A stretch of DNA of 59,758 nucleotides, counting the filler, from Sluysia triapertura (lineage: Eukaryota), in assembly GCA_046118255.1 (NCBI GenBank). It is 5 parts of 5 records of this genome, joined end to end, with 100 filler letters (N's around TTAATTAATTAA, not from the genome) between each part and the next. Parts side by side here need not be neighbours in the genome. Positions count along the whole stretch, not along the records: positions 1 to 11,811 come from JBJNIA010168592.1; positions 11,912 to 24,376 come from JBJNIA010106206.1; positions 24,477 to 35,712 come from JBJNIA010187013.1; positions 35,813 to 48,535 come from JBJNIA010086471.1; positions 48,636 to 59,758 come from JBJNIA010188554.1. The stretch is one strand, 5' to 3'. Positions within the stretch are counted from its first letter, which is position 1. The number at the start of each line of letters is the position of its first letter. Below the pieces are notes generated by a model. The model had not been told where the DNA came from, made no database searches, and saw only the letters and a program-made list of their open reading frames with translations. Made by a program: the position numbers and the translations under genes. Shown one piece after another: positions 10,975 to 57,812 of the stretch.

Positions 10975-11550
10975 TCAAAAATAACGCAGAGCAGGAAAAA
11001 TTTCAGTTTCAAACAAGCATTGGTTGTATAAATAAAGTGATTCGTCCAATTCGATCGTGCATAATTGCATGCAATCAATTTGGATTCTGATTGGATATGA
11101 GATATATTCTATTGGTTTCTTACACTCCATAATTTTCCATTTACCATTTGCAAAGATAACCAGTAAGTAATCTTTTAATTTACATACAAACTGTTTGGGC
11201 TTTCATTGATTAAATTTTAAATGACTAATGACATCGAACTGCTAGAAAGACGTAAAAAATGATGAAGTGATTTCATTGTACTTATTTACATATGCAAAAG
11301 TTTTTCTATTCAAACACATTAACAAAGAAATTAATACATTCTTTGTTCCATTTATATGGAGCATACAATGCTTTCTGTCCATGTATACACACTCAAAAAA
11401 TTGGTATATAAATTTTCGTTTGATTTTCGTATACAATGTTTCATCAATTTTAGCAAATTCGACCGATATACCGTAATCGTCATCGAATTGTAAACGAAAA
11501 TTTTCGTTCGATACACATACATTAAGTACAGAATTTGATAGTTTATACAA
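10975..11550 (-). pseudogene. Family-A ORF copy with in-frame stops
   Basis: One frame with internal TAG and TGA. QFDDDYGISVEF, CLNRKTFAYVNKYNEITSSFFTS and KQFVC align with QFNSDKNGICIKH, CLDKPKVNNFFHFFDVIELSYFYS and NTFLC of the 14-kb copy. Confidence 0.6.
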
Positions 11551-11811
11551 AAAACCTAGAATGTTTAACTCATATTAAATATCCTTTTTAATCGATATAA
11601 TTTACAAATTCAAATCAAGCACAAAAATCTTGTCAACTTAATTTGGTGTTATTTTATTAGAAATAAATAAATAAGATATAACATCACTAAATGAATTACT
11701 AAATAAATTACACGTATTAAATATAATTTCAGAACATTCTTACGTGAGGTTTAATGATAAAACCAATGTTCTGAATAAGTCACAAGAACGATAGAAAGTA
11801 TTTGATCTCCG

Positions 11812-11911
11812 NNNNNNNNNNNNNNNNNNNNNNNNNNNNNNNNNNNNNNNNNNNNTTAATTAATTAANNNNNNNNNNNNNNNNNNNNNNNNNNNNNNNNN
11901 NNNNNNNNNNN
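11812..11911. other. Assembly gap with artificial TTAATTAATTAA linker (also 24377-24476, 35713-35812, 48536-48635); plain gaps at 2808-2907 and 31066-31200
   Basis: Identical N44-linker-N44 structure four times. Confidence 0.95.
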
Positions 11912-12579
11912 TATATATAACACGTAACAAATTGTAACATAAAAGCATGATTTCTACAATTAATATTTTTAGCTTTGAATTAAAATATTTCATATTATAA
12001 ATCGAAAAAGTTTTGTTTGAAGTAAAGTTGCAGATTTTAATAATGATCTATAAATATTTAAATACCATTTACAAATGCTTTCAATTTTTATATTACTATC
12101 TGTTTTTTTCTAGAATTAAATTTTTACATTTAACGTGTTCATTATAATTTGTTACAAATGCATATTTTTAAAAATTATAATTTCTGATTTTAGTTTCAAA
12201 TTTAAAACAGTCAATTTGTTTAATTAGTTTTCTTTAGATTTAAAATTAAATAAATAAAAATAAAATAAAAACAAGCATAGAAAAAAATGTTGTTGCTGCT
12301 GCTGCTGCTGTTTATGATGATTATTATTATTATTAGTATTATATTCATAAATTTATTTTGTTGAAAATTTAAAATTCTTTATAATTCTAAATATATCTTT
12401 TGATGTAAATTTTATTTTTAATTATGAGGCATAAAATGTGCACTCGTAAAATTGTTTAAAAACTAAACATTATAGAGGTAGAAAATTTCGTATCCTTTTA
12501 TGTGAGATTAATTATTAATTATTATTTATTTTATTATAACATATGCGATTATAATAAAAATTGAAAACTTTATTAGCCA

Positions 12580-12580
<1 letters not shown>

Positions 12581-12640
<60 letters not shown>
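12581..12640. repeat. (AAT)n microsatellite; others near 15763, 21579, 24282, 35370, 38504, 45938, 52118, 59708; (GTA)n at 30072-30160
   Basis: Direct inspection. Confidence 0.95.
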
Positions 12641-13629
12641 GTAATAAAAATAATAATGATGATGATAGAAAAATATTACTTTGTTTTTGGAATCAAACTG
12701 GATGTGTAATATTTAATTTGGCTGACCATAAATGCATTATCAGCAAATAAAAGATGAAAAGAAAACTTCATGACATTGTTTCAGTACACATTGAAATAAA
12801 TACAAACATTGAACTGAATTAAAAGATTGTTTGTTGTTTTTCTTGAAGACTGAAATTTGAAACTTAATCTGGATTAATTTTTATTGCCAAGAAATATTTC
12901 GAATACCTATTGAAAAAGAATTCTGGAGGAATGACAGATTTTCTGGAATAAAATAGTTTTTATAATGAACTATGATGACTATGATGAAAATAAATATTTT
13001 GTTGGTATTTATTTTCTTTCCATGTTAGACTTGCTACTTAATGACTGAGACGCAAGAGGATTTCTATTTTAAAAGATATTATTATTATTTATTATTGTTA
13101 TTATCATGAGATATTTAAATAGAATTTAAAATAATATTGAAATATCATTTGTCTCTTTTGATGAGTCATATATTTCATTTATTTTTTCTTATTAACTTTT
13201 ATATCGGTTATATACTAAAGTACAGTACTAATACTAATAATACAAATAATAAACAGAACAACTTAAATAAAGTGCGATATTAAGGCATTAAAAGTTATTC
13301 TTAAATGTTTGTGGTTTTGTTTTTTTAATTTAATTTTTCTTACACTTCATATGTAAAAATTCAACTATTTATTAAAACAAAATATTAGTGATTATATGTA
13401 ATAATCATTTTAATTTATTTTAATTTTTCTTAATTTAAACTTTTGTAAATGTTTAACACATTGTGGACGGATCATGAGAATTGCTTGCATTGAGATTATG
13501 CATTCAATGATACTTTATAGAAAATGATCTTTTATAAAAAGTGAGTGTGCTTAATTGAGCTCTTGGTCTTTTGGTAATAATCTAAACTTCTTTTCACTTT
13601 ATATTACAACTTAAATTGATCCTCTATTA

Positions 13630-13950
13630 ATTTATTCTACAAGTGATATCTATATTCTATATGTTAAATTTACCTTATCTGGAAGTGTAAATTCGAATAC
13701 ACGTTCCAGTTATTAAGATAGAAGTGCTAAATAATTGATTAATTATTCAATTAAACTATTGTTTATATTCGACAATATTTCAATCAATTTCGTGCAGTTA
13801 GGCTGTTGCGATTTATTCAAATATGTAATTTTTAAGTTAAAATTTGATTTTCTAGTTAAATTTAATTTACATCTGTTAAAAATTTATCAATTTCACTAAA
13901 ATTCTAATTTTTGAATTTATATAATAATGAGAACTTTTAAATTCGTTAAT
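13630..13950 (+). repeat. ~300-bp segment shared with 19733-20020; putative element end
   Basis: ttattctacaa...ttaaatt(t/c)accttaYct(g/a)gaagtgt.aattcgaata...gaagtgct...caatttcgt...ttcact.aaattctaa in both. Confidence 0.75.
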
Positions 13951-13955
13951 AAAGC

Positions 13956-14582
13956 TCAAAGAGTAAAAAAAACACATAAAAATGTATTTGTATTAATGTT
14001 ATATTTTATAAATACAATGTTGCGTACGCCTTCTAACGAGATCCATATTTCACTATCTGAATAAAAATAAGATAATTCAATAACATCAAAGAAATGAAAA
14101 AAATTATTTACTTTTGGTTTATCTAAACATGAATTGTTATTTGAAGTATCTGGAACTGACGATCTGAGACTTCTGAGAATGTTTTGGATTCTGGAAAGAT
14201 GATAATCATAGTATAAGTTTTCAGCCTTGTTAGGTACTAATTGGTTGACCGTGTGGGTATATATGCAATCGATCCCATGCTTGATGCATATCCCATTTTT
14301 ATCGCTATTGAATTGGTAGAACACCTTTTTGATAAGTTCACTCGCATTTGGTGCGTTTATGCATTTCTCTGATCGCAACCAATCTTGGAACTTATCAAGA
14401 CTTTTGATATTTTCTCTGCTTTCTAATGTATCATAATTCCGTAAAGTAGCTTGATAATCGTTCGCATAGTTTGGTAGTGTAAATTCTACAGTATACTCGT
14501 TAATATCCGTCAGAACTGGGAATTGCATTTATATATTTGGAGAAAAATTGTCATCGTCATCGCTAATTATAATAGATTCCAT
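13956..14582 (-). pseudogene. Family-A ORF, best-preserved copy
   Basis: 190-aa ORF preceded in frame by MESIIISDDDDNFSPNI* (ATG at 14582). Core FYQFNSDKNGICIKHGIDCIYTHTVNQL...SRIQNILRSL aligns without gaps to the 29.6-kb copy. Confidence 0.75.
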
Positions 14583-15072
14583 ATTCATTGATATCTTCAT
14601 CGACATTAAGAACTTCGAACGAATTGATAGAGGTGTTGTTCACATCTAATTCAACTAATTTTAGCACATTTGAATTAAACCTCATATTTACTAAAGGTGA
14701 TATTGTATTTAACTCGAAATGTAGATCTTTGATCGACTTAAACATTACGTGAATTATTTCAATCATTTCAAGATCTCTTAGAAATAAAAAGTGATTCAAA
14801 ATTTTCATATTATACTTTATTGATTGAATATAATGATTTAATGTTGATTCATGGATAAAGTGTAGAAACCAAATCCTAATGTAACTGATATTTGTAACGG
14901 GATTGCGAACATCGAGCTGGTATTCAACACAGTCTTTCGCACTTATCTCTTTTATAGCTATCCAAAACTCATGATAAAAATTGCACTTTGGTATATTAAA
15001 TTTTACGATCTTAATAGATGTACATGTGAGTTGCTGATGAAGGAGTATTGCTTCTATGGTAGGAGTTTCCAT
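14563..15072 (-). CDS. 169-aa intronless ORF: either an upstream gene or the frameshifted N-terminal half of the family-A copy
   Basis: ATG-initiated and stop-free; overlaps the start of the next frame by 20 nt. No family recognised. Confidence 0.55.
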   Translation of the reverse strand: METPTIEAILLHQQLTCTSIKIVKFNIPKCNFYHEFWIAIKEISAKDCVEYQLDVRNPVTNISYIRIWFLHFIHESTLNHYIQSIKYNMKILNHFLFLRDLEMIEIIHVMFKSIKDLHFELNTISPLVNMRFNSNVLKLVELDVNNTSINSFEVLNVDEDINEYGIYYN

Positions 15073-15544
15073 TCAATGATCGTGATTAAAATAAACATAT
15101 CTAATAATTTCATTGCTATCAGTATCTATCATCGTTTCATATTGATAGAGGTTAGAATCATGATGACTTAAAATATTTTCTAATTTTAATCCTTCAATTT
15201 CTAAACTTTTGATTTTCTGATTTAACTCTGACATTATTGAAGAGATGGAAAAATGAAATTTATAAAGATTAATTGGTTTGAATCACGTATTGTTTCGAAA
15301 TGATATAAATAACCCGAGCAATAATTGCGTAAAATCAATTTTGATACAATGCAGAAGAATTTATGAAAAGTCAATTAAAATAGAGCATTATCAAACGTTT
15401 TTTAAAATTCTTTATTTTTGTTTCCAATAATCCTTTACGTTTTTAAAATTCTAAATTTTTGTTGTTTTTGTTATTCGTACTCACATAAAATAAATATTGT
15501 GCCAACAAAATTTTTTGATTCTGCATACTTTGTCTGGATTCGTT

Positions 15545-15688
15545 GTCCAATATAAAAAATAATGATGAGGTTCTCTCTGGTTGGACAGCCAGTAATAACG
15601 TTACAATAAAATAATTGACAGGTAAACCACTATCAATGGTGATGATAATTTGTACATGGTTACTAATGGTATCACTATTCATAGTGGT
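15545..15688 (-). promoter_or_regulatory. Double inverted-repeat element upstream of family-A locus
   Basis: accactatcaat (15626-37) / attcatagtggt (15677-88), and gtccaa (15545) / ctctggttggac (15575-86). Homologous to 28605-28761. Confidence 0.65.
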
Positions 15689-15758
15689 AATAACTGTTTG
15701 AACATAATTAATAAAGATTTTAAATAATTAAAGAATAAAATGATAATAATAATAACAA

Positions 15759-15816
<58 letters not shown>

Positions 15817-17469
15817 GTTATAATATATAAATTCCTTTCGAAAATTTACATGAGCTTGCTTTTCGATCTTTTAGATTTCTCGACATATTTAAAGATTAAA
15901 ATGATGAAATTAAGAATGATAATAATAATATAAAACGTTGGTAAAGAAAAAGTGCACAAATTCTTTATGAAGATTAACACGATCTTGCTTTTGAATCTTT
16001 ATTATTTCTTAACATATTTAAATTTTTAAAATATATTAACCTTAAAGAATTGTGAATTTGTGATGTTACAGCTTCCTGTGATAAGGTAATACATAAAACG
16101 TTTTAATATAATTTTACACTGTTTACTAGTTTTACGTGAATTTTTAAATACTCTTTAATGTTTCTTACTGAGGATGTATTTGAGTGTAGAAGATTATGAC
16201 TTAAGTACTTTGGAATAGTATAAATATTAAAAGTGGATGATAAATGTGCATTGATGTTTTGAAAGAAAGTAATGTTTAGCTGTTAGGATTTAAATGACAA
16301 CATATCATGAATTTAGAATGTTCGAATTAATTTGAAGGTGTCTGGTAATTAATTTCGAATGTTGTTGTAATTGGATTGTTATAAAATGACGAATACAATA
16401 TTTTTGATGAATTTTCTAATGTAAATTGATGGTATTGAATGTCACTGTGGTTTGTATGTTATAAGATTTAAAATGTTTTGAAAATGAGAGTTGATTTTGG
16501 TGGATCTGCAAAGACATAAGATATGGAAACGGTTTTGACGAATTCGACATGGTTATTGTGTGGTGTTGAAAAGGATAAGATTTTAGTTGTGTTTGTATTG
16601 AATCATGAATTTTAAAAAATGTTATTTGTAGGTTTTGAGGGTGAGTGTTATATTGAAACATGTGATTTTGATTATATTGACATAGCATTATGTTAAAAAA
16701 TGTTTCTAATGAATTTTTTTAATGTATATTGTATATTTTGAAAGTGAATGCGGTTTTGATATGTTTAAAAGAAAATCTTTAATGAAATTTGTTAAAATTA
16801 ATAGGTTGGTCACCACATAGGCTTTAAGGTATCTTATTCTTTGTTAAACTTTATTATCCACTAGAAAGGTAATAAGTAAAATAAGGTAAGTCTATTATTA
16901 TTTTATTAAAAGAAATCAAATAATATACTTATTATAATATGCTTTAGTTATATTCTAATATAATTAGAGTAATTATGTTATAACAAATAAAAATAAAAAT
17001 TTTTATTAACTTTTACATTATTCGAATATATAAAGCAATTCTTACTTTATTTGTAGAGTTAATTAATATTGATTTGGTATTTAATCGGTTGATCACGATT
17101 GCTTTATTGATGCTCTAAGTATACTCTCCAATATGTTTCTCTTCTTTTTTATTTATTACGACTTGATGTATGTACTATTTTACTTCCAAATGATTAAGCA
17201 AATTAATATATATTATTTACGAGTTGTCGTTAGCAAAAATTGATATTATACAATTAAATTATGACAATAAATTCCAAAATGATTAAAAAATTACATTATA
17301 TATTGTATAGTTGTTAGCAACAATTACAATTATTCAATAATAAATAATTACATACGAGTTACAATTACAAATTGTTTTTATATCCAAATAATTATACATA
17401 ATATATTATGAGTTATTTGATTATATTGTATTATGATTATTCTTTGATATATAAGATTATTTCTAAAAT

Positions 17470-17945: not shown

Positions 17946-19984
17946 TGATTTTAATTATTTTAAATTAAAAATGATTAAAAATTTGAAAATTGAAAGTTAA
18001 ATTGTGAAAGTTTAAAGTTAAAATAAACATTATATTACATGAATTTAAAAAATACTTGGCTACTGTGTGTAGTTCATAATGTATTAATATGATTTTTAAC
18101 TAAAAAAATTATAAAATGTATAATTACAAATGTATAAATCCAAATTTAAATTAATATGATTACATAAATAATCATAACTAAATAAACCATAAAATAACAA
18201 TAATGATAAAGAATCGATTATATATTTTAATGTTTTAAAAACATACTTACGCTTTCGTGCCCGGATGTGTAATTAATGAGGTAAACCATTATTTGTTCTT
18301 TAATGTGTTTAGAATAGATTGAATATTAGTATTGTAATGATAAAAACAAAATTAGCTTTATAGAAATTTAAATGTTTACTTGAATGTTTATATTTATATA
18401 TTTTAAACACCAAAGTCTTTATATCTATTTAAGTTTTCTTTAAATTTATGATACATCTGAATATACTGAAAGATTAATTTATGCAGAATTGTAAAACTTG
18501 AACTAAACATTGTACATTTTTATGCACTAAACGGAAAATATAATAAGGCTTTATGAAAATTTAATTTCAAGCAATAAAAATAAGCTGAAAGTAAACTATA
18601 ATTAATTAAAACAATTTATTTTATTCAAATACAATTCAATAAAAATAATTATTTCTTCGTTTTTATTTGAAATTAAAATGTAAATACAATTATTAAATAA
18701 AATGTTTTATAAAAATAAGGGTTAGATAAATTTTAAGTATACAAATTTTGAATACAAATAACAAAAATTTATATTTATTCTGGTATATGAATTCTTTTAC
18801 TGACACTTAATGAAAATTTGAGATTGGCATCACAACCTTGTGACATTAATAATATAGCCTTCCTGTGATAGTATATTGCATTTCATCTAGCAAATCTATA
18901 AGCTAAAATAATACATTCGACGGTAAACATTCTCATAAAATTAGTATTAAATGTGTTAAAACGATAGGAATTGGAGAAGGCCTTGCATTACATCATATTT
19001 GCAGCCGAGTACTGTGTAACGGAATCCATTAAGTTTCTTTATTTTGCTTTAGAGTTAAGTAAGAAAACTCATGAGCAGAAATAAATATAAATATCGACTA
19101 AAATAGTAAATAACTAAAATAGTAAATTTTTATTTTACAAAATAAATTTTATAATCAATATTTTTAATTGATTAAAACTTAAAAACTGTAAAATAATATG
19201 TGATATATTGTATGTATCTTATTTCTTTATTGCTTGTTGTTTTTTAAAAAGTGTATTTTATATGAACATGGAAAAAATATTATTAATACTTATTATAGTT
19301 TTGCAGAAAAAAATACAATTTTCAATTACTTTAAAATCAAGCCAAATCTTGATACAATAACCTAAGATTGACAAAATAACACAGCATGGTACGAAAAATC
19401 GTTTAGAAAATGCTTCAAAATATGTAAACAATTTAAAGTATTGTATCTGATTTCAAATTTTTTTTAATTTTGACCCAATTTTAGAACAAGTCAAAATTGT
19501 ATTTTAAAAAATTAAAAAAATGTTTGATGGTTCTTTATAAAATTTGACTGTGTACATTTTATAAATTTTATATATGCTTGTAATTAACTCGCCGCTTCTA
19601 CTAATAATCTTAATTTTATAAATTCTTATCCTTAATAATATTCTAAACTCTGTATTATTAATAATATCCTCACTTTGTATTAAGTTTAACTGAAGGTACA
19701 ATCTTTTGTCAAAATAAATCTTTCCTATTGTCTTATTCTACAAATATTATTTTACTTTATATTAAATTCACCTTACCTAGAAGTGTGAATTCGAATATTC
19801 GTTTCGATGGACTGAAATGGAAGTGCTTAGATGTTTCACTTCTTTATTTAATTGAATCTTTTCGCTTTTTTTGAATTTTAACTCAATTTCGTAAGCTCTA
19901 ATTTCTAACTCTTTACTATATATGTAGAACTATATAAAAATTAAATATTAAAAATTTATTCACTGAAATTCTAAATTAAAACCA

Positions 19985-20210
19985 ATAAAAAAGAAATTCT
20001 TTACCTTCAAATCGATTAACATATTAAATTTAATGCAATATTTTAATTTTCTATTGTTTATAACAGTAAATAATACCAAGGTCATAATTCCTTCTAACAA
20101 CAAAAGAAAAAATTAATGGTTAGAATCGGGTTCAATATTTTTTCTCCAATTAACAATATATTTTACTGATTTTGGTTGACTCTCGCTCAATATATATCCA
20201 GATAATAGTA
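19985..20210 (-). pseudogene. Probable C-terminal fragment of a family-A ORF
   Basis: ILLSGY...IVNWRKNIE and KYCIKFNMLIDLKV resemble IELSYF...EIWISLE and FLCVFFTL*ALLTNLKV. It is followed by the same downstream segment as the 14-kb copy. Confidence 0.45.
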
Positions 20211-24318: not shown

Positions 24319-24891
24319 TATTATTATTATTATTATTATTATGAAAATCTTTAACAAGAATAATAATTTATAATATNNNNNNNNNNNNNNNNNNNNNNNN
24401 NNNNNNNNNNNNNNNNNNNNTTAATTAATTAANNNNNNNNNNNNNNNNNNNNNNNNNNNNNNNNNNNNNNNNNNNNACAGATTTTACAAAGAAAAATATT
24501 TTTTATTTTATCAATTTGATGAATGTATTTTTAAATTTATCATATTAAAATAAACAAATATCAAATAAATTATTTGCAAAATGACATAAATTTTCCGGGT
24601 GGCACAATTTAATAAATTAGATTAAATAATCTCTGATTAAATTATATTTGAATAGAACATTTCATTTAATAGCAAAAGAATGTTTTTATGATTATTATTA
24701 GAATATCTTACAGTAAAATATAAAATATAAAAAATGTTGGCAAATTAGCAAGAAAATAAAAATTCTCAAAGAAGCTCTATTGTAGTATGCTATAATTATA
24801 AATGTATAAAAGTTTGTCAACACTTTATAACAATCTATTCTTTTCTAAATTTGTAATTTTCTAAACATTAAAAAATTATTTCATGTTAAAA

Positions 24892-24971
24892 GGACTGATC
24901 GGGATACGAGCTCGGGACCTCTCGTTTCACATCTGTGCAGTTCGATGCTCTGATCACTGAGCTATCAGCCC
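24892..24971 (-). pseudogene. Degenerate tRNA-like sequence inside a repeat
   Basis: gggctgatagctcagtgatcagagc...aggtccc...tcagtcc. Acceptor and D stems are present; B-box and anticodon arm have decayed. Confidence 0.75.
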
Positions 24972-25568
24972 TTTCTAACAATTTTATTTTATTGTTGTTA
25001 ATTATACTATCATTATTCTGGATGGCACTTTATGCCTTTACCTCAACACTTGCATAATATGCACCACGATTATCATCCAAAAAATGAGAAGAAATGAGTA
25101 TTATTTTTCTGAGATTATGTAATGTATTAGAAACCATATATAGCATTCAGAAATTATGTCCAATGCAGTAGAATGATATATTAATGTTGATGTTTTGAAT
25201 GAATAGGAATTAAACCGAATGGACTGTTTTGAACTTGAAAAGATATTGCTTTTGTGACTTAAAAAATTCTAAAAAGGACTCTTATCATTGTGAACTAACA
25301 AAATTAACGTTCTTATTTTTGGTATACCAAAAACTTTTGTTTATGTCTAATTGAAAACCATGCGAGAATTTATTTTGGGTTACTTCGTTACGGTAAAAAC
25401 TTAATTTAATTTTCATAACGTCAGAAATGTTAAATTTTAATTTGAAGAGAAAATTTTTACTACCTACTTCATTATTATATAAGTAATACATTTTAGTGTA
25501 AGTTAGCTTCAAAATTCGGTTAAAATTTATTTCAATCTTAATGCTGCTTAGTGGAAGACTTAAATTTA

Positions 25569-25888
25569 TTACAGCCTAAAACTATTATTCGTTTCCATTT
25601 CAAATTCGACTTTAGCATTAATAGGAGTATGATCTAGTCTAATTATAACATCCTCATCCCAGCCAAAAACACCAGCGTAAAGTTGATATTGATTCAGAAA
25701 ATTTAATAAAGCTTCTGGATTGCCGTAAAAAGACTCCAGTAGAAGAACAAAGTATCTCATAGATTCAGTATTCATTTCTTTTTTCTTTCTAGTCTGTGGC
25801 ATAAAATGTTAATTCTGAAATTATAAACTTCTTTTTGTTTAAAAACAAATCTATATAATTATAATGAAACTTTACTGGGGGCACCACA
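25569..25888 (-). mobile_element. LTR-retrotransposon 5' remnant: candidate PBS plus gag N-terminus
   Basis: SFYGNPEALLNFLNQYQLYAGVFGWDED fits the F.G....L..FL..Y..YA...W pattern of Ty3/gypsy Gag. tggtgccccc lies ~80 nt upstream. Confidence 0.55.
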
Positions 25889-26499
25889 ATTCATGTTGTG
25901 TTTTTATATCTTTTTAATATTCTATAAATTATAAAAGCTATTGAATGGGTCTCAATCTCAATATATGACAATTATATCACAATATATCACAATTAAAATA
26001 AAATAATGATTAAGTCAATATAACACAAACTTTTAAGACAATTAATAATCTCTCAGGGATTACACAACACAAATAAATGTTAGTACCCAGAATAAAATAA
26101 ATAAATAATAAAAGCTCAAATAAGTTGGCTCTTTTAATAAAATTTAGTTCGATTTTTTAAAGAATTTTAAGATTCAATCAGTGTTTGCCACTACTGTATT
26201 TAATCACCCTTCTTACACCAATATTTTCTTTTATTCTTTGTGTGAATGATAGAAAAATGTGGTTATTTATGTAGTGTTTGGATAATTGCTAGAAAGTCGA
26301 GAATTCAACTTGATTATTGTGAATGTCGACAATACATGCTTACTTCTTATTCCATTCTTAAGTTTTATGCCAACCAATTTTTTAATCAAATATGAACATA
26401 AATTTACTTCGATTTTCCGACTTAATAGTATCTAGCAATTATCCAAAGATAATGAGTTTATAGCAAACAAACTCTTATCTTTCGAAAATAATAAAATAA

Positions 26500-26735
26500 A
26501 AATTTAACATCATAATATAACAATAGATTTACTTAGATTGAATAAAAATCTAATCAAATATAAAACTAATTTTCAATGATAATAACGAAATACGTTAACA
26601 GTACGTCTCACGTCAATATCAATAACATATTTCGAATGATCTCTTAATGAGCATTAATTTGATTATACTTTTACTATGTATGCTCATTATAATAAATAGA
26701 AATTTAACTTCGTATTAAGGAAAATTAATTAAAAA
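26500..26735 (+). repeat. Dispersed repeat; second copy at ~47850-48065
   Basis: acgttaac.gta.gtc.ca.gtcaat...tatgtatgctcattat...atagaaatttaactt...gaaaattaattaaaa in both. Confidence 0.8.
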
Positions 26736-27427
26736 TAATGAATAACTCTTAATATACTCTTAATAGTTACAAACTGAATATAAATTCTCAATTATAAATC
26801 CAGAGGTGATACAAAACGCAAAATTTAGTAGAACAGATATAACATAAACGTGGATCATCTAACCGCAACAATAATACTTCGGTTCGTATATGTTATTTTC
26901 TCATACACAGACGTCTTACATAAAGCTATTAATTCGAACCATTTTTTAATTTGATTAATGAATAAATGTACTTTTATAATTGTTTTAAAACCGTAAAGAG
27001 AGTTTTCTTTTAATTTAAGCACTTTACAAATATATCCCATTAACAAACATGAAACATCATGGTGTTAGGATTATTTTATAGGTGTTTATAAGTTTATTAA
27101 GTTTATAACGTGGCTTTGACTTAGCTCTTTTTACCTATATTATTTTTTAACACTTGTATTAACTTCTGGAGGTTATTGTTCACTCGTCTCTGGTGTAAGA
27201 AATGGAAGTGCAGTTTGTTTGATTAACGTTAGAATTCAAGTTCTTCTCCTTAAAATCAAATAATATAAACTAAACTCACTAAAAGTTTAATTATCAAATA
27301 TAAGTATTTATCAAATACAAAGTCTACAAAAATAGTTCGAATAATATTCACAATGTAAAATGTACCACATGTAGTTATATTTTGAGTGCTTACAAACTTC
27401 TTTTAAAATTAAATTTAAATGTAACAC

Positions 27428-40583: not shown

Positions 40584-41504
40584 CTTAAGACTAAACTAAG
40601 TTTCTTTTTATTCTATCGCTTCACTTTTATTTCTCACGCTACTTATGAATTGTATGTAAGAAAATTATTTATTAATGTAATATGAAATAAATTAAATTAA
40701 AATCACAAATTGTAACAGTATATATGCAATCAAAATTTTTTGAAACAGACAATTATTATTGCAAATACTGAGAGGAAAATTTAAAGTGGACATTTTGCTG
40801 AACATTATTTAAACATAAATTATTTTAAAATTCAACGCTATAATGAGAAGCTACACTGGTTTTACGGTTAGTTTCAGTCTAATACGTGTATGTGCGGATA
40901 TGTAAAATTTGATTGTAACTTGTATACGATCTCCACAGGGTTATCATTAAACGTATCAAGATCTCAGATGCGTTTTTAGTAATATCTCTAACAATCGGGA
41001 GAAATAAATCTTATACTTGCAACTTCATTTATATTTTTTTAGTTATTACTTTTTTCTTTGTTAAACTTATAAAGTGTATACTACATCACACAAAATTACT
41101 ACAACAACCAAAAGGACTGCGTGATAAAACTCTGTTTTAAAATAACTGTGTACTATTGAAACACATAACTTTATTTTCAATAGACAATTCCGAAAATTTA
41201 TTATTTGCATAATTCTTAAATACCGTTTCATCTGTAGAATGAAAATTAGATAAATCTTTTAAAATTTTGATCACTACAGATTATAAATTATATAAATCAA
41301 CGTCAGTGCAATATTTTACAAATTGTTGAATCAAAAAAACTGTACAAAAATATTTTGTATCACTATCTATTTAGGAAATATAAGAAATTTTAAAATGTAT
41401 GATAGTTTAAATTTTACAAATTATATACATCTGATTAAGAAACACAAAATACCTTTAAAACTAATTTAAAAAAATGCGACTCAATAAAATACCATTTTAC
41501 TTAC

Positions 41505-42348: not shown

Positions 42349-45300
42349 CTAAATTAATTTAATTGAATAAAAATTAGCAATACTTGATTAATAATTTTTG
42401 TCATTGACTAATAAAGTATATGAAATATATAAACGCTTATTATACACAGGAATAAATTTATAATATTAAATAATAATAAAATTATATTAAATTATATTAA
42501 ATTATAATTAAATTAATTAAAATTAATTTAAAAAATTATTAATATATAAATAAAAATGTCATTAATCGCCTAAAATATAAATTTATTTATTTAAACAAAA
42601 ATGATATTGTCAATGTAAAATTGTTAAGTAATGTAACTGGATATCAAGTAGAATAAGATGTAATTTAAAAATGTTTTTGTTTCATTAAAAAAACTAATAA
42701 AAATCATTAATTTATAGGAAGTCAGTTATGAACAAAAAAAATTTATGTTGGAAAATCTGATATATTAAATTATTACTAAAACAATTTAGATTAAGATTAC
42801 TATGTACTTATCCGTTAATATAAGAACAATTGTAAAAAATCGAAAGATTTGATTTATCTTACAATTTTAAACGATTTAATCAATTCTAATTTACAACATA
42901 TAGTTATATAATATGATCTCAATTTTGGCATTGTCTGTTTGCTTCACCTTTACTTATATTTAATTTATTCGCTTAATTTAATTTTAATACAACTACCAAA
43001 TAAGAAATATAAACAAAAATATAAATCTCTGATAGACTTACTGATAGATAGCAATATATTATTAATTAAGATATTATTAGTAACAATAAGTCAATAACTG
43101 ATCAATTTACTTAACAGAATCTCGACAATTTCAACAATCACAAAAACAAACATACATTATCACAAATTTTCTTATTTTAGCAATAATATTTATTATAACT
43201 CGATAATTTACTAATTACAAAATCAATTACCGTAAGTTTTTACTTTAACAATAATACAAATGAATTAAATTAACAGTAATTTTATAATAATAATATTACT
43301 AACACAATAATCTATCAAAAGAAACCAGAGGTGACGCAACTAACAAAATCAAATTATTCTTAACACTTCTAAAAAATAATTCTTTAAATAATTAACAAAT
43401 TTCATTAATATGTTCGCTTTTCTTTGCTGAACAATTATGAATACTTTCATAAAGACTGGGTTCGCCTACGTTAAGCGATTTATCTTAAGGAAGGACGCCT
43501 ATGTAGGATTTTGCTAAAGAAAAGTTGATGCTGAGGGTCACCGTGTCAAATTCTTACACGTAATATTCTAATCTTTTAATCTTGATTTTAATTTTTATAT
43601 TTCTATGGAACCTTTAACTTTTAATCTATGTTGCTCAAAACAAAAAATTTTAAAATAAAAAAATTTATTAAAACAACTTTTTAACAAATAATATATATGT
43701 ATCAAACAAAAAAAAATATATAATAAAAGCATAAATTTCAAATTTTAATTTAAATTAATTTGACCCAGAGTTAATTTTTGGGCATAAAAATTTAAATGAT
43801 TTTAAGTTGAATGTTAAGACAGCTTTTATCAGTGTCTTAAACCTAACAAAAATAAGCTTACTTAAGGTACTACAGAAAAATCAATGGCTGTAATACATAT
43901 ATCCAATCGAATTCGAATGGTAGTCTTCTGGATAAGTCTTTCTACTTATTAGTGTTTCCCACGTGTTAACAACTGACGAAATCGGATTAACAAAAGTCTT
44001 TTTAATTTCTTGTATTTTAAATTTTCCACGAACGAAAACCAAATCTTTATGTCTCTTTAACAATAACAAGTTACTAAAAATTGTGTTAGTCAAATAATTA
44101 TGTAGTACCTTTTCCGACAATAAAATTCCGTGAATAATATTTATATTTATAAATTTTGGTAAATAAATATATAGTTTATTAATTTTTCGACGATAAATTT
44201 ATAAATATTTGTGAATATTTGTATAAATATTTGTTTCCGTTTTTTCAAATTAGATAAATTATCAAAGTTTAAAACTTAATACATTTAATTAAATTATATT
44301 ATTAATTATTAACCATAATTATTTACACTAATGAATATATAATTAATATCATTAAAATTAAATTTACAAAAATTTATACACGTTTATTAAATTTACAAAA
44401 ATTTATACACGTTCGTCTTGATTATTTACAAATAAAATTAGTCTGAAAACTCAATATATCTTCCAATATAATGAAACAGAATAATTAATCTCATCTAAAT
44501 AAAAGTTATTAACTACAAACGGACTTTACTCGTCGATTAATCAGGAAACAAAATGTTTAAAACAACTGTAAATAATTAAAGAGGAAGTCTCCCAAAAACG
44601 AAACTAATTTACTTAATATCAAAATAACAAAATAAAATAAATTCACAATTTTATGCATATTCACAGCAGCAGCATTAAAGTTTCATTACTTGATGTGTTG
44701 CGTGTTCAAAATATTTAGGTATTTCTTTTATATTTTCTCATCATTCAATCATTCCTGAATTTTTTGATCAAGCATTCTTTCACACAAATCATATCAAAAT
44801 TCTATGAGAATTAAACCGGCAATTACAGTTACATGGTATAGCTTGTTGAGCTTGATTTACGATCATCTATTATTCTTCAACTCTATTTAGTAGTTTTAGA
44901 AAGAAGATTGTCTTATTAAGTTTGTAGTTTATACTGAAAAATAGGTGAACTGTAAGTATGAATTGAACTTAAACTTTGAGATTAATGGGCGTTCGGTGAG
45001 TATAGATGTGGTGGCCAACTTCTTCACAAAAAATTTTATTGTATCATTTTACGCAAAAATCATACCCATTTAACACTTAAACACTTACCACATCAAAATC
45101 GTTATACTCACATTACAAAAAAAAATTTTCAAAATAACAGTAAACAAAATGGAATTTCTTTTAACACTTCTAACATCACCAAATCTCTCTTAAAAATACT
45201 CTTTTCTTCATTTTTATTATTATCCTTCCTTTTTCTCAATTTACACAATTTTATTTGATTACAACGTGTAAATTTTCTGTAACAATCATTTTGTAACACA

Positions 45301-45982: not shown

Positions 45983-48900
45983 GGATACTAAAATCCAAAA
46001 AAACCCAGGAGTGGCTCAAGAGACACTAACAATTCAGTATCTGGAAAGTTAATAATAATTATGCTGCTTACATATTTTTAGTTACCTTAACCAAGCATAA
46101 TCACGATTAAATATTAAAATAAAAATTTTGGACAGAGATCCTTTCTAAAACTTAACAGTAATATCTAAAATATTTTATATTTGTAGGGTGTTTCCCACAA
46201 AACTAGTTTTTAAAAATGGCTAAAAAGAGATCAAGAATAATAATCAAATATACATTAAAATAATCACCTAAAATTTATTATCTTTCAATCAAATGTTTTC
46301 CCAAAAAAGAAAATTTAATTATTTATTTTATTTCAATTTTATAATAATAAAATAATAAAAATGAAAATAAATAAAGACATTAGCATGGATCTTCAATATC
46401 GGTAGGATTAAGTGATTGTAAGATTGTGCAATTGTGATGTAAAAATTTAGAAATTTTTATTTTATACTCTCTCATCATCCATTCAATGCACAGTCTCACA
46501 ACCAAACACTCTCTCATACAGATCATCTATACCTCTTTGAAAATCAGACCGACAATAACAACTTTGACAATTACATGTACGATCTGTCAAACTTCATTAG
46601 GTACAAAACATAGAAATCTGATTTATTATCAACCATCATTTCCTTTTACACTACTCAATCTATTTTTACTTAAATTAATTCTCACATTAAAATAATGATC
46701 AACAATATTATTAACATACATAAAAATAATGAACCTAATTTCACTTTTACTATTTAATTAATTTTTGATTTTCACACCCAATTTTCTAATAAAGATATTT
46801 TAAGGTTCTCATTCTCAAACGAACCATTTTACAAAATTTAGAACCTACTTATAGATTCTCCTCTTTGACAGCAATCAACTCATATTCAATTCATTACATT
46901 TGCATCACTCTAAGTATTAAAAATAAAACATTCCATACCATAATGAACTCGGTGAAACCATAACTCCATCGGAAGGTCTTTTCAAAACAAATACATACAC
47001 AGATTCAAATTCAACATAGTATTCCTCATTTAAAAGTTATTCACACAAACGTAATTTTTCTTAATTAAGTTAATTAAGGTTTTAATTAATTAATCTATTT
47101 TTAGACTTAATTTTATTTTATCTTTAAAGGTTTTATTAAGTTTCTAAGGCATTCAGGAGGCTCTAGATGTTTTCGCCTCACTTCTCACATTCCTTTTTCT
47201 ACTTCTTCATATTAATTATTTACTTCACTAAACTAATTCTTAATATTAATAACAACAATTTCATTTTTCAAGTGTTTTAAAGATTTTAAATAACTTTATA
47301 AGGTTACTAAAGAATCTCAAATGCTTACTGATGTTTTAAGAGTACTAAAGGTTACTAAGATCTCAAATAATCTAACAGTTCATAAGTTCAAAAGTATATT
47401 AATACTTCAAAAGATTTTTCAAGTCCATCTCAAACATCCATAAAGGTATTTGGTAGATATTTCATAAACTTTCATAGATCTTTGCATTGCCAAGATATTC
47501 TTTAGATGTTAACATTATTATAAATATTTAATTTTTATGATTCTTATTTCAACGCTGTTTATAATATCAGATCCATCACTTAGTATCAGTTCTTTCTTAA
47601 TTTTGTAGTTCTATATGTTTCTCAGTTGGGCAATCCCAACAGTATGTTTAAGAATCTTAAAGATTATTTTTAAAAGAAAATTATAAATTTATATGCCGAC
47701 TAATTTTATTAATCAAATTTGAATATAAATTTCCGTCGAATTTCCGCCTTAATATTATCTGGAAATTATCTAAAATAATGAATTTTGTGACAAATAAACG
47801 CTTACTTTTTGATTATAATAAAATTAAAATTTAAGATTATAATTATAATAATACCTATCATTACAACAATACATGAAATTAAATTGAATATAAATCTAAT
47901 CACATATAAAACTTTTGATACAATACGCAACACGTTAACGGTAAGTCACATGTCAATTTCAATTAACATATTTAGAATGAGAATTAATTTAATATATACT
48001 TTTATTATGTATGCTCATTATACTACATAGAAATTTAACTTTATAATAAAGAAAATTAATTAAAACTGATGATTTTAAATTGGTGTTAATAACACTGATA
48101 TATTGTTTCGTAATTTATTTAATTAAAATTTGTTTATTATGCAATTTGTTTGATTGTCTTTTAATTGCTTTTTATTTATTTTAAAATTATCTTAATTATT
48201 GTTTGTTTTTAATTAAATTTTTACTTAATTTTTTTAAATAGCAGGAGATTTCAGAAACAGTATTGTCGAAGTTAAACAGATAAGTAGTCTCCCTCTTTAT
48301 ACAGTCTGTAAAAATCTTTATTATCGTCTTCTTTGTCATAAGACATCATATTTATCTGGCCTGCAAACACCGTTTAGTCATTGTTTGTTTTAGAACGATT
48401 GTCATAATTGTTGTGTCTTTTAATACTTTTATTTTCCCAAATTATTAAATCAAAAGTCAATAATTAAATAAACTCAAAACCTCAGTATATTTGATATATT
48501 ATCAAAACTACAATCAGATTATATAAATTATAATANNNNNNNNNNNNNNNNNNNNNNNNNNNNNNNNNNNNNNNNNNNNTTAATTAATTAANNNNNNNNN
48601 NNNNNNNNNNNNNNNNNNNNNNNNNNNNNNNNNNNATGTTGTGAAATAGTATTAAATGTACTTGTGGTTTATATGTTGTAAGTTGTGATTGTGATTTGAT
48701 TTAAACCAATAAGCTATTGAATAAATATTATTAAACATTGAGTATTAATTGTTACAGAGTGGTGTAAAATGAAGGTTCGAAAGTATTAGATGGATTGTCT
48801 CGGATGTGTTTGTTGTTTAATTATTGTAAATGTCGAGTATTTTTTCTGATGAGTTAGTTAATGTAATTTGGTAATGTTAAATATGATTGTGATTTAGATG

Positions 48901-49019
48901 TTGTGGAATTTTAATAGATTTTTAGTGGTTATGAGTGTTGGCCACCACATTAAGCACCAATTTTGTCATAACTTTAGCCTTAATATAAATAAAATTTCTA
49001 GCAATAATATGAGTAACAA

Positions 49020-52115: not shown

Positions 52116-52155
<40 letters not shown>

Positions 52156-52168
52156 AACATTAACTTAC

Positions 52169-52228: not shown

Positions 52229-53040
52229 CTTAATATAAAACGTATAATGATGTAAATAACCACAATTATAAAATAACGTTAGCTACTTGAATAAACCACA
52301 TACGAAATATGAATTAACTCAATGTCTCAAAATTATAGTTCATATAATGCATAAAAAGAAATGACTTTTGTCGGAGATTCACAAGCAACACTCATTCCAA
52401 TTAGTTTTCCATAGCTAAACGAAATAGAAATTGAGAGTTAGAATAAAGATAAGAGCCTATAAGAAATCCAGCGTGATAATGCAACATAGTTTCAGTTTCA
52501 TTCAAGTGGTCTTGTGTTTTAATGCAACCATGAATTCGAAAAATAAGCGAAACGAGCTCAGGTGGGAATAGTGATTTTGTTGTGTATTGTTAAAATATTG
52601 GGTTGGCCACCACAGTTTTATTAAAATAAAAAACTATATAATAAGCCGACCTTGTATTATTTATAGAATTATTAATAATTTTTTAAGAGATAAAAATTTG
52701 AAATGACATCTCTTGAAAATATGAATTTAGTTGAGATAGATGCTAAGTCAATACCAATGATGTTCGATGATGAAAGAAGAAGTCTATCCATTCTAATTGA
52801 TGATCAAATATTACTCAGAACTTTGTCTACTTACCACCATAACAAACGAGATTTTATAAATTAGAATTCAATGTTGTGTAACTTCAAAAGTATGAATTAT
52901 GTCAACCATAATGTAACGACAGCCTCTGCATACTTAAGCATGTCAGTGCTGCGTGTCATACATTTACCACTTTATACTGGTATCACCTCCACTTGACTCC
53001 GAATGTTTTAGACTGTTTGCATAACGAGTCACGTGCAGGC

Positions 53041-53275
53041 CATTTAAAAGATGAACTAGATGCTTTAAATTTAGACCAGTTTAAATGATTAGTTTAGATT
53101 GTCCGAAGCTCCATTTGAAAGATGAACCAAATGTTAAAATTAAGTTTTAAATTTAGACGTTCAAAATGGAGCGAGTTCATGATTAGTTTGGATTGCTCAA
53201 GACTCCATTCAAAGGATGACGAGCCGTATGTTAAGTTAAAAGTTTTCAACATAGGAAGTCAAAATTGAATGAATT
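53041..53275 (+). repeat. Three degenerate 70-95-bp tandem units
   Basis: catt..aa.gatga at 53041, ~53111 and ~53205; atgattagttt.gattg occurs twice. Confidence 0.7.
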
Positions 53276-54782
53276 TACGATTATTTCGAATTATTTTAAA
53301 CTGGAAATCACTAACATGTATACGCGGCCTAACTTGCAGATCAATACATTCTATGTTCAGGAATATTTATTAGTGTTAGTAAATTTATTAGTGACTGAAA
53401 ATTTTATTCAAGGTAATCCAAAAGTGATCTGTAGACGATTTGATTATAAGCCCTCTTTTTATGTATGTTAATTTGCAACAAAAATAAAAACTGTTTTCAT
53501 TATTTTTGTATTCGTAATGCAAAATTTGAGAATAATAAATTATTTAAGCACAGAAGTAAACTTTATTAGCGGAGATGATAATAAAATTTTCTGTAACAAA
53601 GTTAAGAGATTAATAATTAATATCATGAATAATAAATCATATAAATTTCATAATTTTAATAATCCATCACTAAACTAGTATTATCGCTAGGTACATATTG
53701 AAAAATTTTTAAACATTATTGTTTTTTTATACTTGAAAAATTAATTTTTAATTTTTAAAATTTATTTATTTATTTTAAAATATAGTGTAATTTTAATTTT
53801 ATTATAATTTTATAAATATCTTGTACAAATTAAAAATCATTTCCAATTCATGAAACGTGAAACTTTAATTATTACTTTTAATTTAAAGAAAAAAAGAATT
53901 GTAAAATTGCGCACTGATGTTTCGGTCCGCGCAAAGCCATTTGCCTAGAATAAATTTTACAAAAACGATAAAATACTAATAAAGATAACAAGAAATATAC
54001 ATACATAAATTTGCATAAAAGAATCAATAAGTGGGACAATTTCAATTATAATAATCATAAATTATTACCACTGTGTTTATACTTGTGTTTGTGTTTGTGT
54101 TTGTGTTTAGTATGTATTGAGTAATTCGTTCAATAATTTGTTTATGCAATATGTGTTGATTTGTGTTGAAGTTTGTTTTTGTGATAAGTTGATTTTCAGT
54201 TCACAACATGAAATCCGTATTATTGAATTTTATAGCTTTTTTAGACATTATCAAACAAAACAAAGTCACAAGATATTACAAAATCAGTCTTCTTTCGGCT
54301 AAGAACTATTGCATCCTGTGATGAGAGAATCCTCTCTACAATAAATCGTACCCTCACAAAACAGCCCCTAGTAGATTATTTGATTATTGAACATGTTATT
54401 TTGTATTTTTAAAAGTAAAGTGGAAGATTTAGTGAATGAACCTGATAAAGTAAGCATTCGGTTCAAAAAGATTGAAAGGCAGACTTAAATGCCTTTAATT
54501 GAAATTTTAGATATAGATATTTGGGACCCTGAAATTTCCCATAATTTATTTATATTTATATTTCCATCGAGAAAGTTCTAGTCAACAGCCGTGCAAATAG
54601 ACCATTAGTTCAAAGTAGTTATTAAACTGTAGAGTTAAAAAAGTATAACCTAATTTATTATATTTAGAATTTAATTATGGATTTGACAAAAAAATTACAA
54701 AACGTTTACAATAAATTTAATCTTAAAAATTATTTTAATGTTCTTTAAATTTTAAAGTTTAAAATATCAAGTAAAAAGTTAC

Positions 54783-54921
54783 CTCTAAATATCTTTCCAT
54801 TTCTTTTAATAACAAAGGGTATCGAGATAGTCTATCAAACACCAATGATAATTGTTGCTTTATTTGAGCCCAATCAAAAAAAGTTGACATTTGAGTTTCA
54901 AAGAATTCACACACTGCAGAT
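54783..54921 (-). CDS. ARHGEF7: PIX-like RhoGEF DH exon (...LSLVFDRLSRYPLLLKEMERYLE)
   Basis: tttag| ... |gtaact. Matches PIX LSKPF.RL.KYP.LLKELERH.E and splices in frame to the next two exons. Confidence 0.9.
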
Positions 54922-56484
54922 CTAAATATATTACAAATGATGCAAAGCAATATTTTTTGTAATACATTTTCATTTTTAAGATTTTTTGTAATAATAATAT
55001 TTCGATTATTAAACAAAATGACTAGAAGCCTATCTAATAATTAATATCCCTTAATAGTATTATATTCGGCCTTTGTATTAGACATTATACTTAGATAGAT
55101 AATTACATTTTCATTATTGAAATATTGGAAAGATCAAACATAAGTTATACTTTAAATAGTAATTTAAATAAAAATTATAATTTTACAAAGTTTTGCACAC
55201 GTCACACACCACATGATTTAACTGTGTGAAAAATAATTTCATATAATTTTTTTAATTGAACAAAAAAAATTATGAAGTTATTTTGATGTATTCAGCACTA
55301 TAACATTTAATTAAAAGAATCAATAAGTGGGCTAAGATTTGATGACTTTTAGTCAATTTTTAAATTTGTCATATAACAATATCATAAAGAATAAAATCTT
55401 TTTATTTACAATATTAATTGTTTGAATGAGATTTATAAATTACAATAAAAATATAATTTCAAATCTGAAAATCTAATAAAATTATAAAAAATATATAAAC
55501 CGTAATAACATTTTAACACGGTAACTAAGTCAGAAACGGATATATTTAATAAAGTATTTTCTTAAGGGCCTAAACCCTTTATTGAAGTGCAAAGTGGGCT
55601 TAAGGTTCTTATTGTTTAATCTTATTATGAATGAACGTTTGAAAATGATTGCTAATAATTTAAAATAATAATTAAAATATATTACAGCACCATTTAAAAT
55701 ATCTGAAATTTGGAAGTCATTTGCAATTCCGATATGGTATCCAACACAAAAAAGAAAAAAAAGTTTTCAATATGATGAAACTCATAACTCAATTATTCTA
55801 TCCGTAAACCATCTTCCATCGCTTTTTTTTTAAAAAAGCTAAAATTCGCATCATCCTTTCCATGAAAATTGATTATGAAACATTCAGATTTGTTACATAA
55901 TTTGACAATTGTTACACATTTGACATTTAATTCAGTAATTTCGCTTGTTTAACTATGACATATCAACATCTTTATTGCATCTATATTTCTACAATATAGA
56001 GGTTTCTTGATATACTTTATTATCAAGAATCAAGATAATAAATATTAAGATTTAAAATGCCTTTGCTTTGAGCATCAAAACTTTCCTTAAAACGTATGAA
56101 TCATTGTTTTTATACTAATTAAACCACCTTTAAATATACTTGTGTAAATAGCTACATCTTATAATCAAACTACGCTTCACTCCAAAAATGATATTCATCA
56201 AAGTCTAAACAGTATCAGATTCAACTTGATCATACAACATAATCTGAAAACAATTTTTAATGTTATAACTCTTTTCCATCATGATGTAACTTGAATTAAT
56301 AAAAGTAAAGCTATGATTTTTTTAAAATGCAATAATAAACTATGCCACGTATTATTAAACAATTAATAAAGAAAATATATCCTAAAATAAAAATAAAAAC
56401 ATAAACTAATAATGATAATAAAATTTATTACAAAAATTAATAAAATAAAAATTAATAATAATAATAATAAAGAAAATAGAAATT

Positions 56485-56558
56485 AATAACGTTCACTGCT
56501 GAGACAAACACAAACTTCTACCTACGAGATAACTCGTAGTTGGCAGCGAACGTGTTAA
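56485..56558. mobile_element. Tiny TIR element with TTAA end (piggyBac-like MITE)
   Basis: acgttcactgc...gcagcgaacgtgttaa inverted ends; subterminal palindrome ctacgag-ataa-ctcgtag. Confidence 0.55.
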
Positions 56559-57174
56559 TAAAAATTGCAAAGATAAATGATAAAATTAATAATAAAAATT
56601 AATTACAATATTCGATTTTAACAATTAATAATGACAATGTAGAAATATTTAATTGAAGTACATAGTAAAATGAAATAGAGTAAGTTCTCATAATTGTGTA
56701 AGTATAAAGAGATGTACAAACGAATGGGAATTAATCGTTTTGTGTGAATATTGGAAAAATGTATTATTGTATTTGGAATGATTAATTGAGGTTTTGATTC
56801 AACATAAACCTTAAAATTAAAAATCTTAAATGTCCTGAAATCAAAATAAATGAAAAAATAAAAACGGAAAGTAAGACTAAATTAATAAAACAAAGAATAA
56901 GTCAAAACAATTAAAATAGAAGTAAAAAAGAAACATCGTTTCAAAAATATGCAACCATCAACCAGAGAATATTAAATTACTGAAAGATCATGAAATACAT
57001 TTCTATTTCAGAAATATTATAGTGAATAATTTATTTTTAGATATTTTGAATACTTATTATACAGCATCTGGTGTTAAATGATTTGAAATTATTATTTTTA
57101 TTGTATGAGTAAATGTTAGATTGAAATTGAAATACGTTGAATTATTAACTTGTTAAGAAAAGAACTTGTTAGAA

Positions 57175-57812
57175 TTATTTTAAAACCTTCATTATATACT
57201 TTTTATTTATAAGATTAAATAAGCAAGAACTTGAAACTTTATTATTAAATATACAACATTTAATTTTTATAATAATTAACATCAAAGTTTGTATAATGTC
57301 TGTATTTTCATGTCGTTGGATATTTTGGTTGTGGAGTCCTAAAAAATAAATAATACGTATAAAACTCATGTTCATTAAAGAATAAAATTATAATTCTTCA
57401 AGTCTTGGATTATGAAATCGATAATAGAAATTGTCTTCATATTGGAAGTTTGAAAATCGTTGAACTTCGAATTGTTGTAGGAATAACTGCATTGCAACGA
57501 GGCCAATAAACTATGTAATCGTTGTCTGTGTTCGTATGCCACTTGTTCATTGCCATATATTTCAGTGACATTTTGGTAAAAACTGAAGGATGTACCGAAT
57601 TTGATGCATATTCCAAAAGCATCTAGTTGATAAGGATATTGTGCCATACGCTCTTCTGGTTTTATACTTGGTATAAAAGCCGATTCTTCCAGTGTTTCAC
57701 ATTGTTTAGTTGGTATTGCTTCAGTTCTAGTCGTTTCTGATTCAGAAAAGTTTTCTAATCGCCTAATTACATTGTATGACACTACAGCGTACACGTCCTC
57801 GTTCTAATACAT
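57175..57812 (-). pseudogene. Family-A ORF copy
   Basis: YPYQLDAFGICIKFG...YEHRQRLHSLLASL versus YQFNSDKNGICIKHG...YHLSRIQNILRSL. In-frame stop after MY at the start; frameshift near 57380 into FFNEHEFYTYY. Confidence 0.7.

Follow-up and report, generated by a model that had tools for sequence, protein, structure and literature searches.

Three decayed copies of a putative finger-bearing cassette in the genome of Sluysia triapertura

Introduction

What are the decayed, mutually similar reading frames found in one stretch of the genome of Sluysia triapertura, and by what route were they copied? The stretch, hereafter the window, comprises 59,758 nucleotides (nt) made of five parts of assembly GCA_046118255.1 joined end to end. 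It is AT-rich, with a G+C content (GC) of 18-36% by 2-kb bins, and belongs to a gapped draft assembly, with 11 runs of N counted in it. A preliminary description of this DNA had proposed an old, intronless family of seven copies, all disabled, similar mainly as protein, with a shared C-terminal block and no known domain, carried as cargo by a mobile element or a DNA virus. Here we follow up that proposal. Three copies are supported, which we call copy 1 (14 kb, minus strand), copy 2 (29.6 kb, plus strand) and copy 3 (57.6 kb, minus strand); they occupy both strands and are spaced by 15 and 28 kb in window coordinates, among host exons of the DEG/ENaC and RhoGEF types. We lean towards reading them as decayed copies of a cassette, copied as DNA, in which a leader, a variable front and a zinc finger of the Unkempt type follow one another.

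Results

Three copies share a protein core

The similarity is carried by a block of 52 codons that aligns without gaps, as first quoted, between 14321-14166 (minus strand) and 29562-29717 (plus strand), with 15 of the 52 residues identical. When 105 pairs were tested against shuffled sequences, with significance set at p<0.01 among non-overlapping pairs, the significant pairs were exactly the three that link copies 1, 2 and 3. None of 300 shuffles reached the score of copy 1 with copy 2 (z 7.2) or of copy 1 with copy 3 (z 7.7), and a single one reached that of copy 2 with copy 3 (z 4.4); tblastn searches of the whole window gave the three core pairs E values of 9e-5, 2e-3 and 0.04. The similarity is real for these three copies. 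The profile search suggested in the preliminary description was run on the six frames of the window, where it returned the three cores and no further copy, the next best score (5.0 bits) falling within the range of maxima from 20 shuffled runs (2.7-9.1 bits).

The other proposed members are a borderline piece at 11.5 kb, whose score was reached by 18 of 500 shuffles when set against the core of copy 1 and by 62 of 1000 when set against the three cores together, and the frames at 20.1, 32.9 and 37 kb, which score as protein at the level of shuffles. At 11.5 kb the exon after the candidate intron measures 54 nt and its phase differs from that of copies 1 and 2. The 20.1 kb piece is tied to copy 1 by DNA alone (13623-13728 matches 19724-19827), and the region looks like a local duplicate of the flanks of copy 1, without leader, front or finger. 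Seven proposed copies are in this way reduced to three and a borderline fourth.

The core is likely an Unkempt-type finger and a short helix

Far from having no known domain, the core weakly and consistently matches a CCCH finger of the Unkempt type: PF25427 (zf-CCCH_UNK) is the best or second-best Pfam family for copies 1 and 2 (Table 1), and copy 2 also matches CCCH structures in the PDB (2e5s, E 0.037; muscleblind 5u6l, E 0.7). In an Atlas search with the core, ranks 3, 4 and 6 went to CCCH clusters (scores 0.76-0.78), which we take as leads only. The residues are laid out as x-x9-C-x6-C-x3-H, the first ligand position not being cysteine in any copy; three of the four metal ligands are kept in copies 1 and 2, and one of four in copy 3. 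Within the window, the pattern D-x2-G-x-C-x6-[CF]-x3-[HQ] is found solely at the three copies, and two of the three occurrences of C-x6-C-x3-H belong to copies 1 and 2. The core is therefore likely, by its sequence, to be an Unkempt-type CCCH finger followed by a short helix. The missing ligands are consistent with decayed fingers, and the copies as assembled would not be expected to form a zinc-binding finger.

Homologue searches were empty for the open reading frame (ORF) at 14 kb against longer proteins, for the alignment of the three copies against 1.84 billion representatives (0 matches) and for two pieces of the context. Single-sequence fold models were poor (mean predicted local distance difference test scores, pLDDT, of 37 and 40), and fold searches with them gave nothing at E 0.001. 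A supposed resemblance of the 14 and 11.5 kb pieces to CCCH and Tudor exons of one gene was dropped: there was no Tudor match, and the supposed Tudor strand lies inside a predicted intron.

The 3' part contains predicted introns at matching places

The C-terminal block said to follow the core is not significant as protein, its three pair scores being reached by 133, 180 and 434 of 500 shuffles. It coincides with two predicted GT-AG introns of 54-61 nt around a mini-exon, whose places in copy 1 and copy 2 correspond, so that these copies are probably not free of introns. The first 55-nt GT-AG stretch starts 55 nt past the helix in copy 1 and 72 nt past it in copy 2. GC is 16-22% in the predicted introns and 35-36% in the finger exons, and two of the four tandem intron pairs in the window lie directly behind a finger, on its coding strand. 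The 3' part thus probably holds two short spliceosomal introns around a mini-exon, a prediction made from the DNA. Because the predicted introns sit at corresponding places although the copies are no more than about 30% identical, this part would have moved as DNA. Exons of a spliced gene or a transposon ORF had been named beforehand as what would tell against the proposed family; the predicted introns of the 3' part would answer in part to the former, and no transposase match supports the latter.

Leaders are alike and fronts are not

Upstream of copies 1 and 2 lies a non-coding leader built of twin inverted repeats. With microsatellites masked, the two leaders align at 54.5 bits (shuffled maximum 36 over 25 tiles), with 102 of 185 alignment columns identical (55%), and their orientation to the finger is correct on opposite strands. 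Three of the four inverted repeats fold better than shuffles (z -3.4 and -5.8 in copy 2; the other two -2.5 and -0.7); 91% of 46 cells are paired, with one compensatory change. Another non-coding module is common to the upstream regions of copies 2 and 3 (Table 1). A non-coding repeat is present in three copies at 26350-26750 (+), 32300-32700 (-) and 47680-48070 (+), of which the first two, in inverted orientation, enclose copy 2 together with the ENaC exon.

The frame between leader and finger measures 0.7-0.9 kb, and no candidate intron was found in it. In an open-frame test the front of copy 1 (15234-14566) had one stop in 223 codons, with 19 expected, and copy 2 had three in 297 codons, with 24 expected. 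The intron-free state of the fronts suggests that they entered through RNA or as single exons. No pair among 21 upstream pairs was significant (the lowest reached by 25 of 300 shuffles), and the fronts of copies 1 and 2 appear, from this comparison, not detectably related. At 14.69-14.97 kb the copy 1 front gives a weak lead to a RUN domain (PDB 8jca, E 0.043, or 0.011 once trimmed), and an Atlas search with this front gave no usable match. The copy 2 front has no Pfam match under E 0.1 and no PDB match at E 10. A supposed resemblance of the frame at 28.9-29.7 kb to the extracellular portion of the DEG/ENaC channel encoded next to it was abandoned, as neither ASC nor a PDB channel was matched.

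The copies probably diverged as proteins and then decayed

As the ratio of nonsynonymous to synonymous substitution rates (dN/dS) would be saturated at about 30% identity over 52 codons, the trace of selection was measured as identity per codon position. Core identity at positions 1, 2 and 3 is 40, 48 and 35% (p 0.016, 0.0015 and 0.07), and 9 of 15 shared core residues use different codons. Since position 2 is the most identical and the shared residues are often differently encoded, the copies would have diverged as protein, which upholds their description as old, diversified and similar mainly at that level. The copy frames contain 0-3 stops, with 9.5-24 expected, and these few stops appear to have arisen after the protein-level divergence. 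This pattern leads us to infer past selection for a readable frame, followed by the death of each copy. As assembled, the three supported copies are indeed all disabled, by stops, a frame change and missing metal ligands.

Genomic setting and other features

The DEG/ENaC and RhoGEF exons point to an animal host, judging by their sequence. The DEG/ENaC last exon has an Asn-rich tail, part of which is duplicated near 35.15-35.44 kb, and, on the strand that it shares with copy 2, begins 237 nt past the second predicted intron of that copy; upstream exons of this gene were not found in the window. Copy 2 may sit within a DEG/ENaC intron or splice into its exon.

Several further observations concern other parts of the window. 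Positions 1-4330 (+) hold one or more very long, GC-richer repetitive coding frames with units of 27, 54 and 156 nt and PCESREQ-like repeats, which look like an intact large host exon. An open frame of 296 amino acids at 8374-9261 (-), with a weak HEPN match and no homologue from the search, is probably the last exon of a host gene. It may resemble FAM227. Two adjoining open frames of 79 and 96 amino acids at 25288-25808 (-), without database match, are possibly another decayed intron-free gene. A tRNA-like sequence occurs at 24884-25061 and 31570-31731; the Rfam scan gave a tRNA match at 31577-31648 (41.8 bits) and nothing else, ARAGORN made no call, and the pair is probably a tRNA-derived short interspersed element or a pseudogene. 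Dispersed non-coding repeats in two copies were seen at 6456-6977 and 46895-47445, 7460-7617 and 36173-36348, 16330-16493 and 48775-48940, 40529-40620 and 58695-58776, and 44644-44827 and 46376-46560.

Candidates elsewhere were not retained. One at 52.9-53.1 kb was borderline (65 of 1000 shuffles); a decayed coding-like region lies there at 52694-53468 (+), behind a (TAT)n run, and about 75 nt of it are duplicated internally near 53.09-53.25 kb. At 37.0 and 37.5 kb the scores of finger-like motifs were equalled by 112 and 934 of 1000 shuffles, and a SWIM finger at 37116-37160 (C-x-C-x9-C-x-H) was a pattern alone to which Pfam gave no support. The region 36950-37992, outside the family, is a GC-richer decayed coding-like stretch with a weak DUF4806 match (-) at 37.7-38.0 kb (E 0.0013), and is possibly a transposon remnant.

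Table 1. Positions of the copies, their parts and neighbouring features in the window
Feature	Position	Strand	Basis or remark
Possible fourth, more degraded copy	11242..11574	-	Borderline scores; no finger cysteines; candidate 48-nt intron 11289-11242 where expected
Predicted intron 2, copy 1 (61 nt)	13955..14015	-	C..F motif is its pyrimidine tract
Predicted mini-exon, copy 1 (41 nt)	14016..14056	-	
Predicted intron 1, copy 1 (55 nt, GT-AG)	14057..14111	-	[FY][DN]xI motif falls inside
H..R..L.SL helix past finger, copy 1	14166..14201	-	Alignment; helix 105-123 in low-confidence model
Unkempt-type CCCH finger remnant, copy 1 (likely)	14253..14318	-	Pfam zf-CCCH_UNK E 7.8e-4 (19.7 bits); PDB 5elh E 4.7; motif position
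Variable front, copy 1	14319..15234	-	No candidate intron; two stops and frame change near 14.57 kb
Twin inverted-repeat leader, copy 1	15555..15700	-	Behind (TAA)n run 15761-15821
Finger-less duplicate of copy 1 3' flank	19724..20110	-	Upstream flank common too (17.5-17.9 kb and 20.5-20.9 kb)
Non-coding module upstream of copy 2	27139..27250	+	Partner at copy 3; 79.5 bits, shuffled-tile maximum 36
Twin inverted-repeat leader, copy 2	28593..28770	+	Arms 28605-28667 and 28710-28761; CCAAT at 28764
Variable front, copy 2	28899..29564	+	Intron-free frame, two stops
Unkempt-type CCCH finger remnant, copy 2 (likely)	29565..29630	+	Pfam zf-CCCH_UNK E 0.0095 and 0.02 (15.3-16.3 bits)
Helix past finger, copy 2	29670..29717	+	Alignment; one stop inside
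Predicted intron 1, copy 2 (55 nt, GT-AG)	29789..29843	+	
Predicted mini-exon, copy 2 (59 nt)	29844..29902	+	Length modulo 3 equals that of copy 1 mini-exon
Predicted intron 2, copy 2 (54 nt)	29903..29956	+	
DEG/ENaC channel gene, last exon	30194-31037	+	Pfam ASC E 0.006; PDB channels E 4e-4 to 0.1
RhoGEF exon (host)	near 54.8-54.9 kb	-	E 0.007
Degraded intron/mini-exon/intron layout, copy 3	57230..57399	-	Placed by eye, missed by intron scan; acceptor-like end 57339; no GT donor at matching place
Helix past finger, copy 3	57495..57530	-	Motif position
Finger remnant, copy 3	57573..57638	-	Core similarity, motif position; 1 of 4 ligands left
Partner of 27.1 kb module, upstream of copy 3	58479..58591	-	Orientation to finger as at copy 2

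Discussion

The explanation to which we give somewhat better than even credence is that the three copies are decayed members of a cassette copied as DNA. The unit would consist of a leader with twin hairpins, which two of the three copies show and which possibly acted as promoter, an intron-free front that differs between copies, the likely CCCH finger with its helix, and a 3' part in which short introns are predicted. It would have been copied as DNA, as the retained predicted introns suggest, whether through a non-autonomous element or through dispersed duplication, and its front would have been replaced by retrocopied or otherwise captured sequence, probably from other genes, yielding chimeric proteins that bear an RNA-binding tag. 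Each copy may then have diverged while selection kept its frame readable, and later died. A bolder version, which we hold to be conceivable and rather doubtful, makes of it a gene-shuffling mobile cassette, in which the fixed promoter-like leader and the intron-bearing finger exons would bracket a slot for swapped intron-free pieces of host genes, mass-producing translated chimeras with an RNA-binding tag. Gene capture and mobility are in both versions what the sequence leads us to infer. As to the earlier suggestion of a mobile element or a DNA virus, a mobile setting is plausible, given the common leader, the mixed strands and the position among host exons, and nothing supports a virus.

A number of results weigh against the cassette. 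The finger assignment is likely and not certain, because all its matches fall under the curated cut-off (31.1 bits for zf-CCCH_UNK; the best here is 19.7) and unrelated matches score alike (3nt8, E 0.011; DUF6078, E 0.0032); copy 3 alone gives no Pfam match. Tandem intron pairs of the kind predicted are common by chance, four in the window compared with 2.3 per shuffled window, so that their position, rather than their presence, is informative. The open-frame test used frames picked for openness. One compensatory change in two sequences amounts to no evidence of covariation (230 of 500 shuffles), there is no leader at copy 3, and searching the window with a profile built from the two leaders brought up no other. 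The RUN lead comes without a Pfam RUN match, and the low-confidence model consists of strands, not helices. Neither front was identified as a host gene by Pfam and PDB searches, and with a core only about 30% identical, related fronts could have diverged past detection. Among 142 ORFs scanned in the window there was no transposase, nor a Rep/Helicase; compared with one another, the 3' flanks of the copies show nothing above shuffles; and copies 1 and 3 lack bracketing repeats. Direct repeats flanking the copies exceed shuffles in none of the three. The inverted pair 26436-26652 / 32600-32354 (59.4 bits, null 26.1) brackets copy 2 only, with an N gap between its arms and a third copy of the repeat at 47.7-48.0 kb.

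Much of this would fit an ordinary lineage-specific host gene family undergoing birth and death, in which whole genes were copied by dispersed or local segmental duplication, with neither capture nor mobile element. Such a fast-evolving family is a serious rival, which we judge credible and still rather unlikely: it accounts for the joint copying of introns and promoter-like leader, for the local duplicate at 20.1 kb, and for the want of a transposase, of ends for copies 1 and 3 and of a front recognizable as another gene. It is hard to reconcile with it, however, that a non-coding leader aligns at 55% while some 220 codons of front show no similarity, the reverse of the usual pattern, and that the fronts are without introns where the 3' ends have predicted ones. 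We think it improbable that some copies are live and that their stops and frame changes are errors of the draft assembly. The 11 N runs and the strong depletion of stops would agree with such errors, but the first finger cysteine is missing in all three copies, copy 3 retains a single ligand of four, and all three types of stop codon occur.

That the copies were cargo genes of an integrated DNA virus is very unlikely, and this reading is largely refuted. In the Atlas search the top two rows were unnamed clusters that include viral members (score 0.80), a level that shuffled proteins reach one third of the time; against the virus stand the predicted spliceosomal introns, the host exons between the copies, the empty search of 1.84 billion representatives, the lack of any PHROG under E 0.007 in 17 pieces (best E 0.008) and of a viral fold match at E 0.001 with a poor model. 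A lone viral-contig match and a lone metagenome match (L001, L002) are short matches that arose by chance within long, unrelated frames. Chance resemblance in AT-rich DNA, finally, describes well the weak pieces and the C-terminal block, which score no better than shuffles, the outcome that the preliminary description had said would undo the family. For the main copies chance is refuted, and we give it next to no weight, by a core that is consistent three ways (z 4.4-7.7) and by independent matches of leader and introns at the DNA level.

As the discovery of a new protein family the case mostly dissolves, since there are three copies of a known finger type, dead as assembled. Its remaining value is the layout of a conserved leader, unrelated intron-free fronts and a fixed finger whose predicted short introns are conserved. 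Should it be confirmed across the genome, the cassette would offer a way of making new chimeric genes that corresponds neither to long terminal repeat (LTR) retrocopies nor to simple Pack-TIR elements. No account of such a finger cassette was found in the literature, in a search of listings and the openings of abstracts.

How, then, does the putative cassette compare with known systems? Its finger resembles that of Unkempt (PF25427, PDB 5ELH) in a weak match over positions 12-39 of a 40-position model, and in the intact C-x6-C-x3-H half of copies 1 and 2. Unkempt itself (PMC4358403) has six tandem CCCH fingers plus a RING and binds RNA cooperatively; each copy, in contrast, has one finger, with its first cysteine gone, an unrelated helix behind it and a variable front fused to it, and the copies are for this reason not Unkempt orthologues. 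Viral membership would entail viral homology or linkage to viral core genes, neither of which was found here. The non-coding modules, dispersed, multicopy and associated with short inverted repeats and a microsatellite, recall the Helentron-derived HINE and DINE-1 elements (PMC4067079), yet the sub-terminal inverted repeats (subTIRs), 3' stem-loop and TT insertion of those elements were not located, and the inverted repeats sit just ahead of the coding region. Chimeric retrocopies mediated by LTRs (PMC5131818) share with the cassette an intron-free captured sequence behind an element-borne promoter, sometimes in frame. They differ in their bracketing direct repeats, found around none of our three copies, and in being intron-free as whole units: here the fronts alone are so, and predicted introns, which a unit copied through RNA would lose, persist in the 3' part. 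Pack-TIR and Pack-MULE elements are defined by terminal inverted repeats, and multicopy cases by distinct target-site duplications (PMC8277862). Like the copies described here, they are present in multiple copies, carry duplicated sequence in the form of DNA and give chimeric transcripts; unlike them, our inverted pair brackets copy 2 alone, across an assembly gap, and a fixed finger exon comes with predicted introns of its own. By analogy, the cassette would work like Pack-TIR or LTR-retrocopy gene capture, yet it shows the full defining marks of none of these systems.

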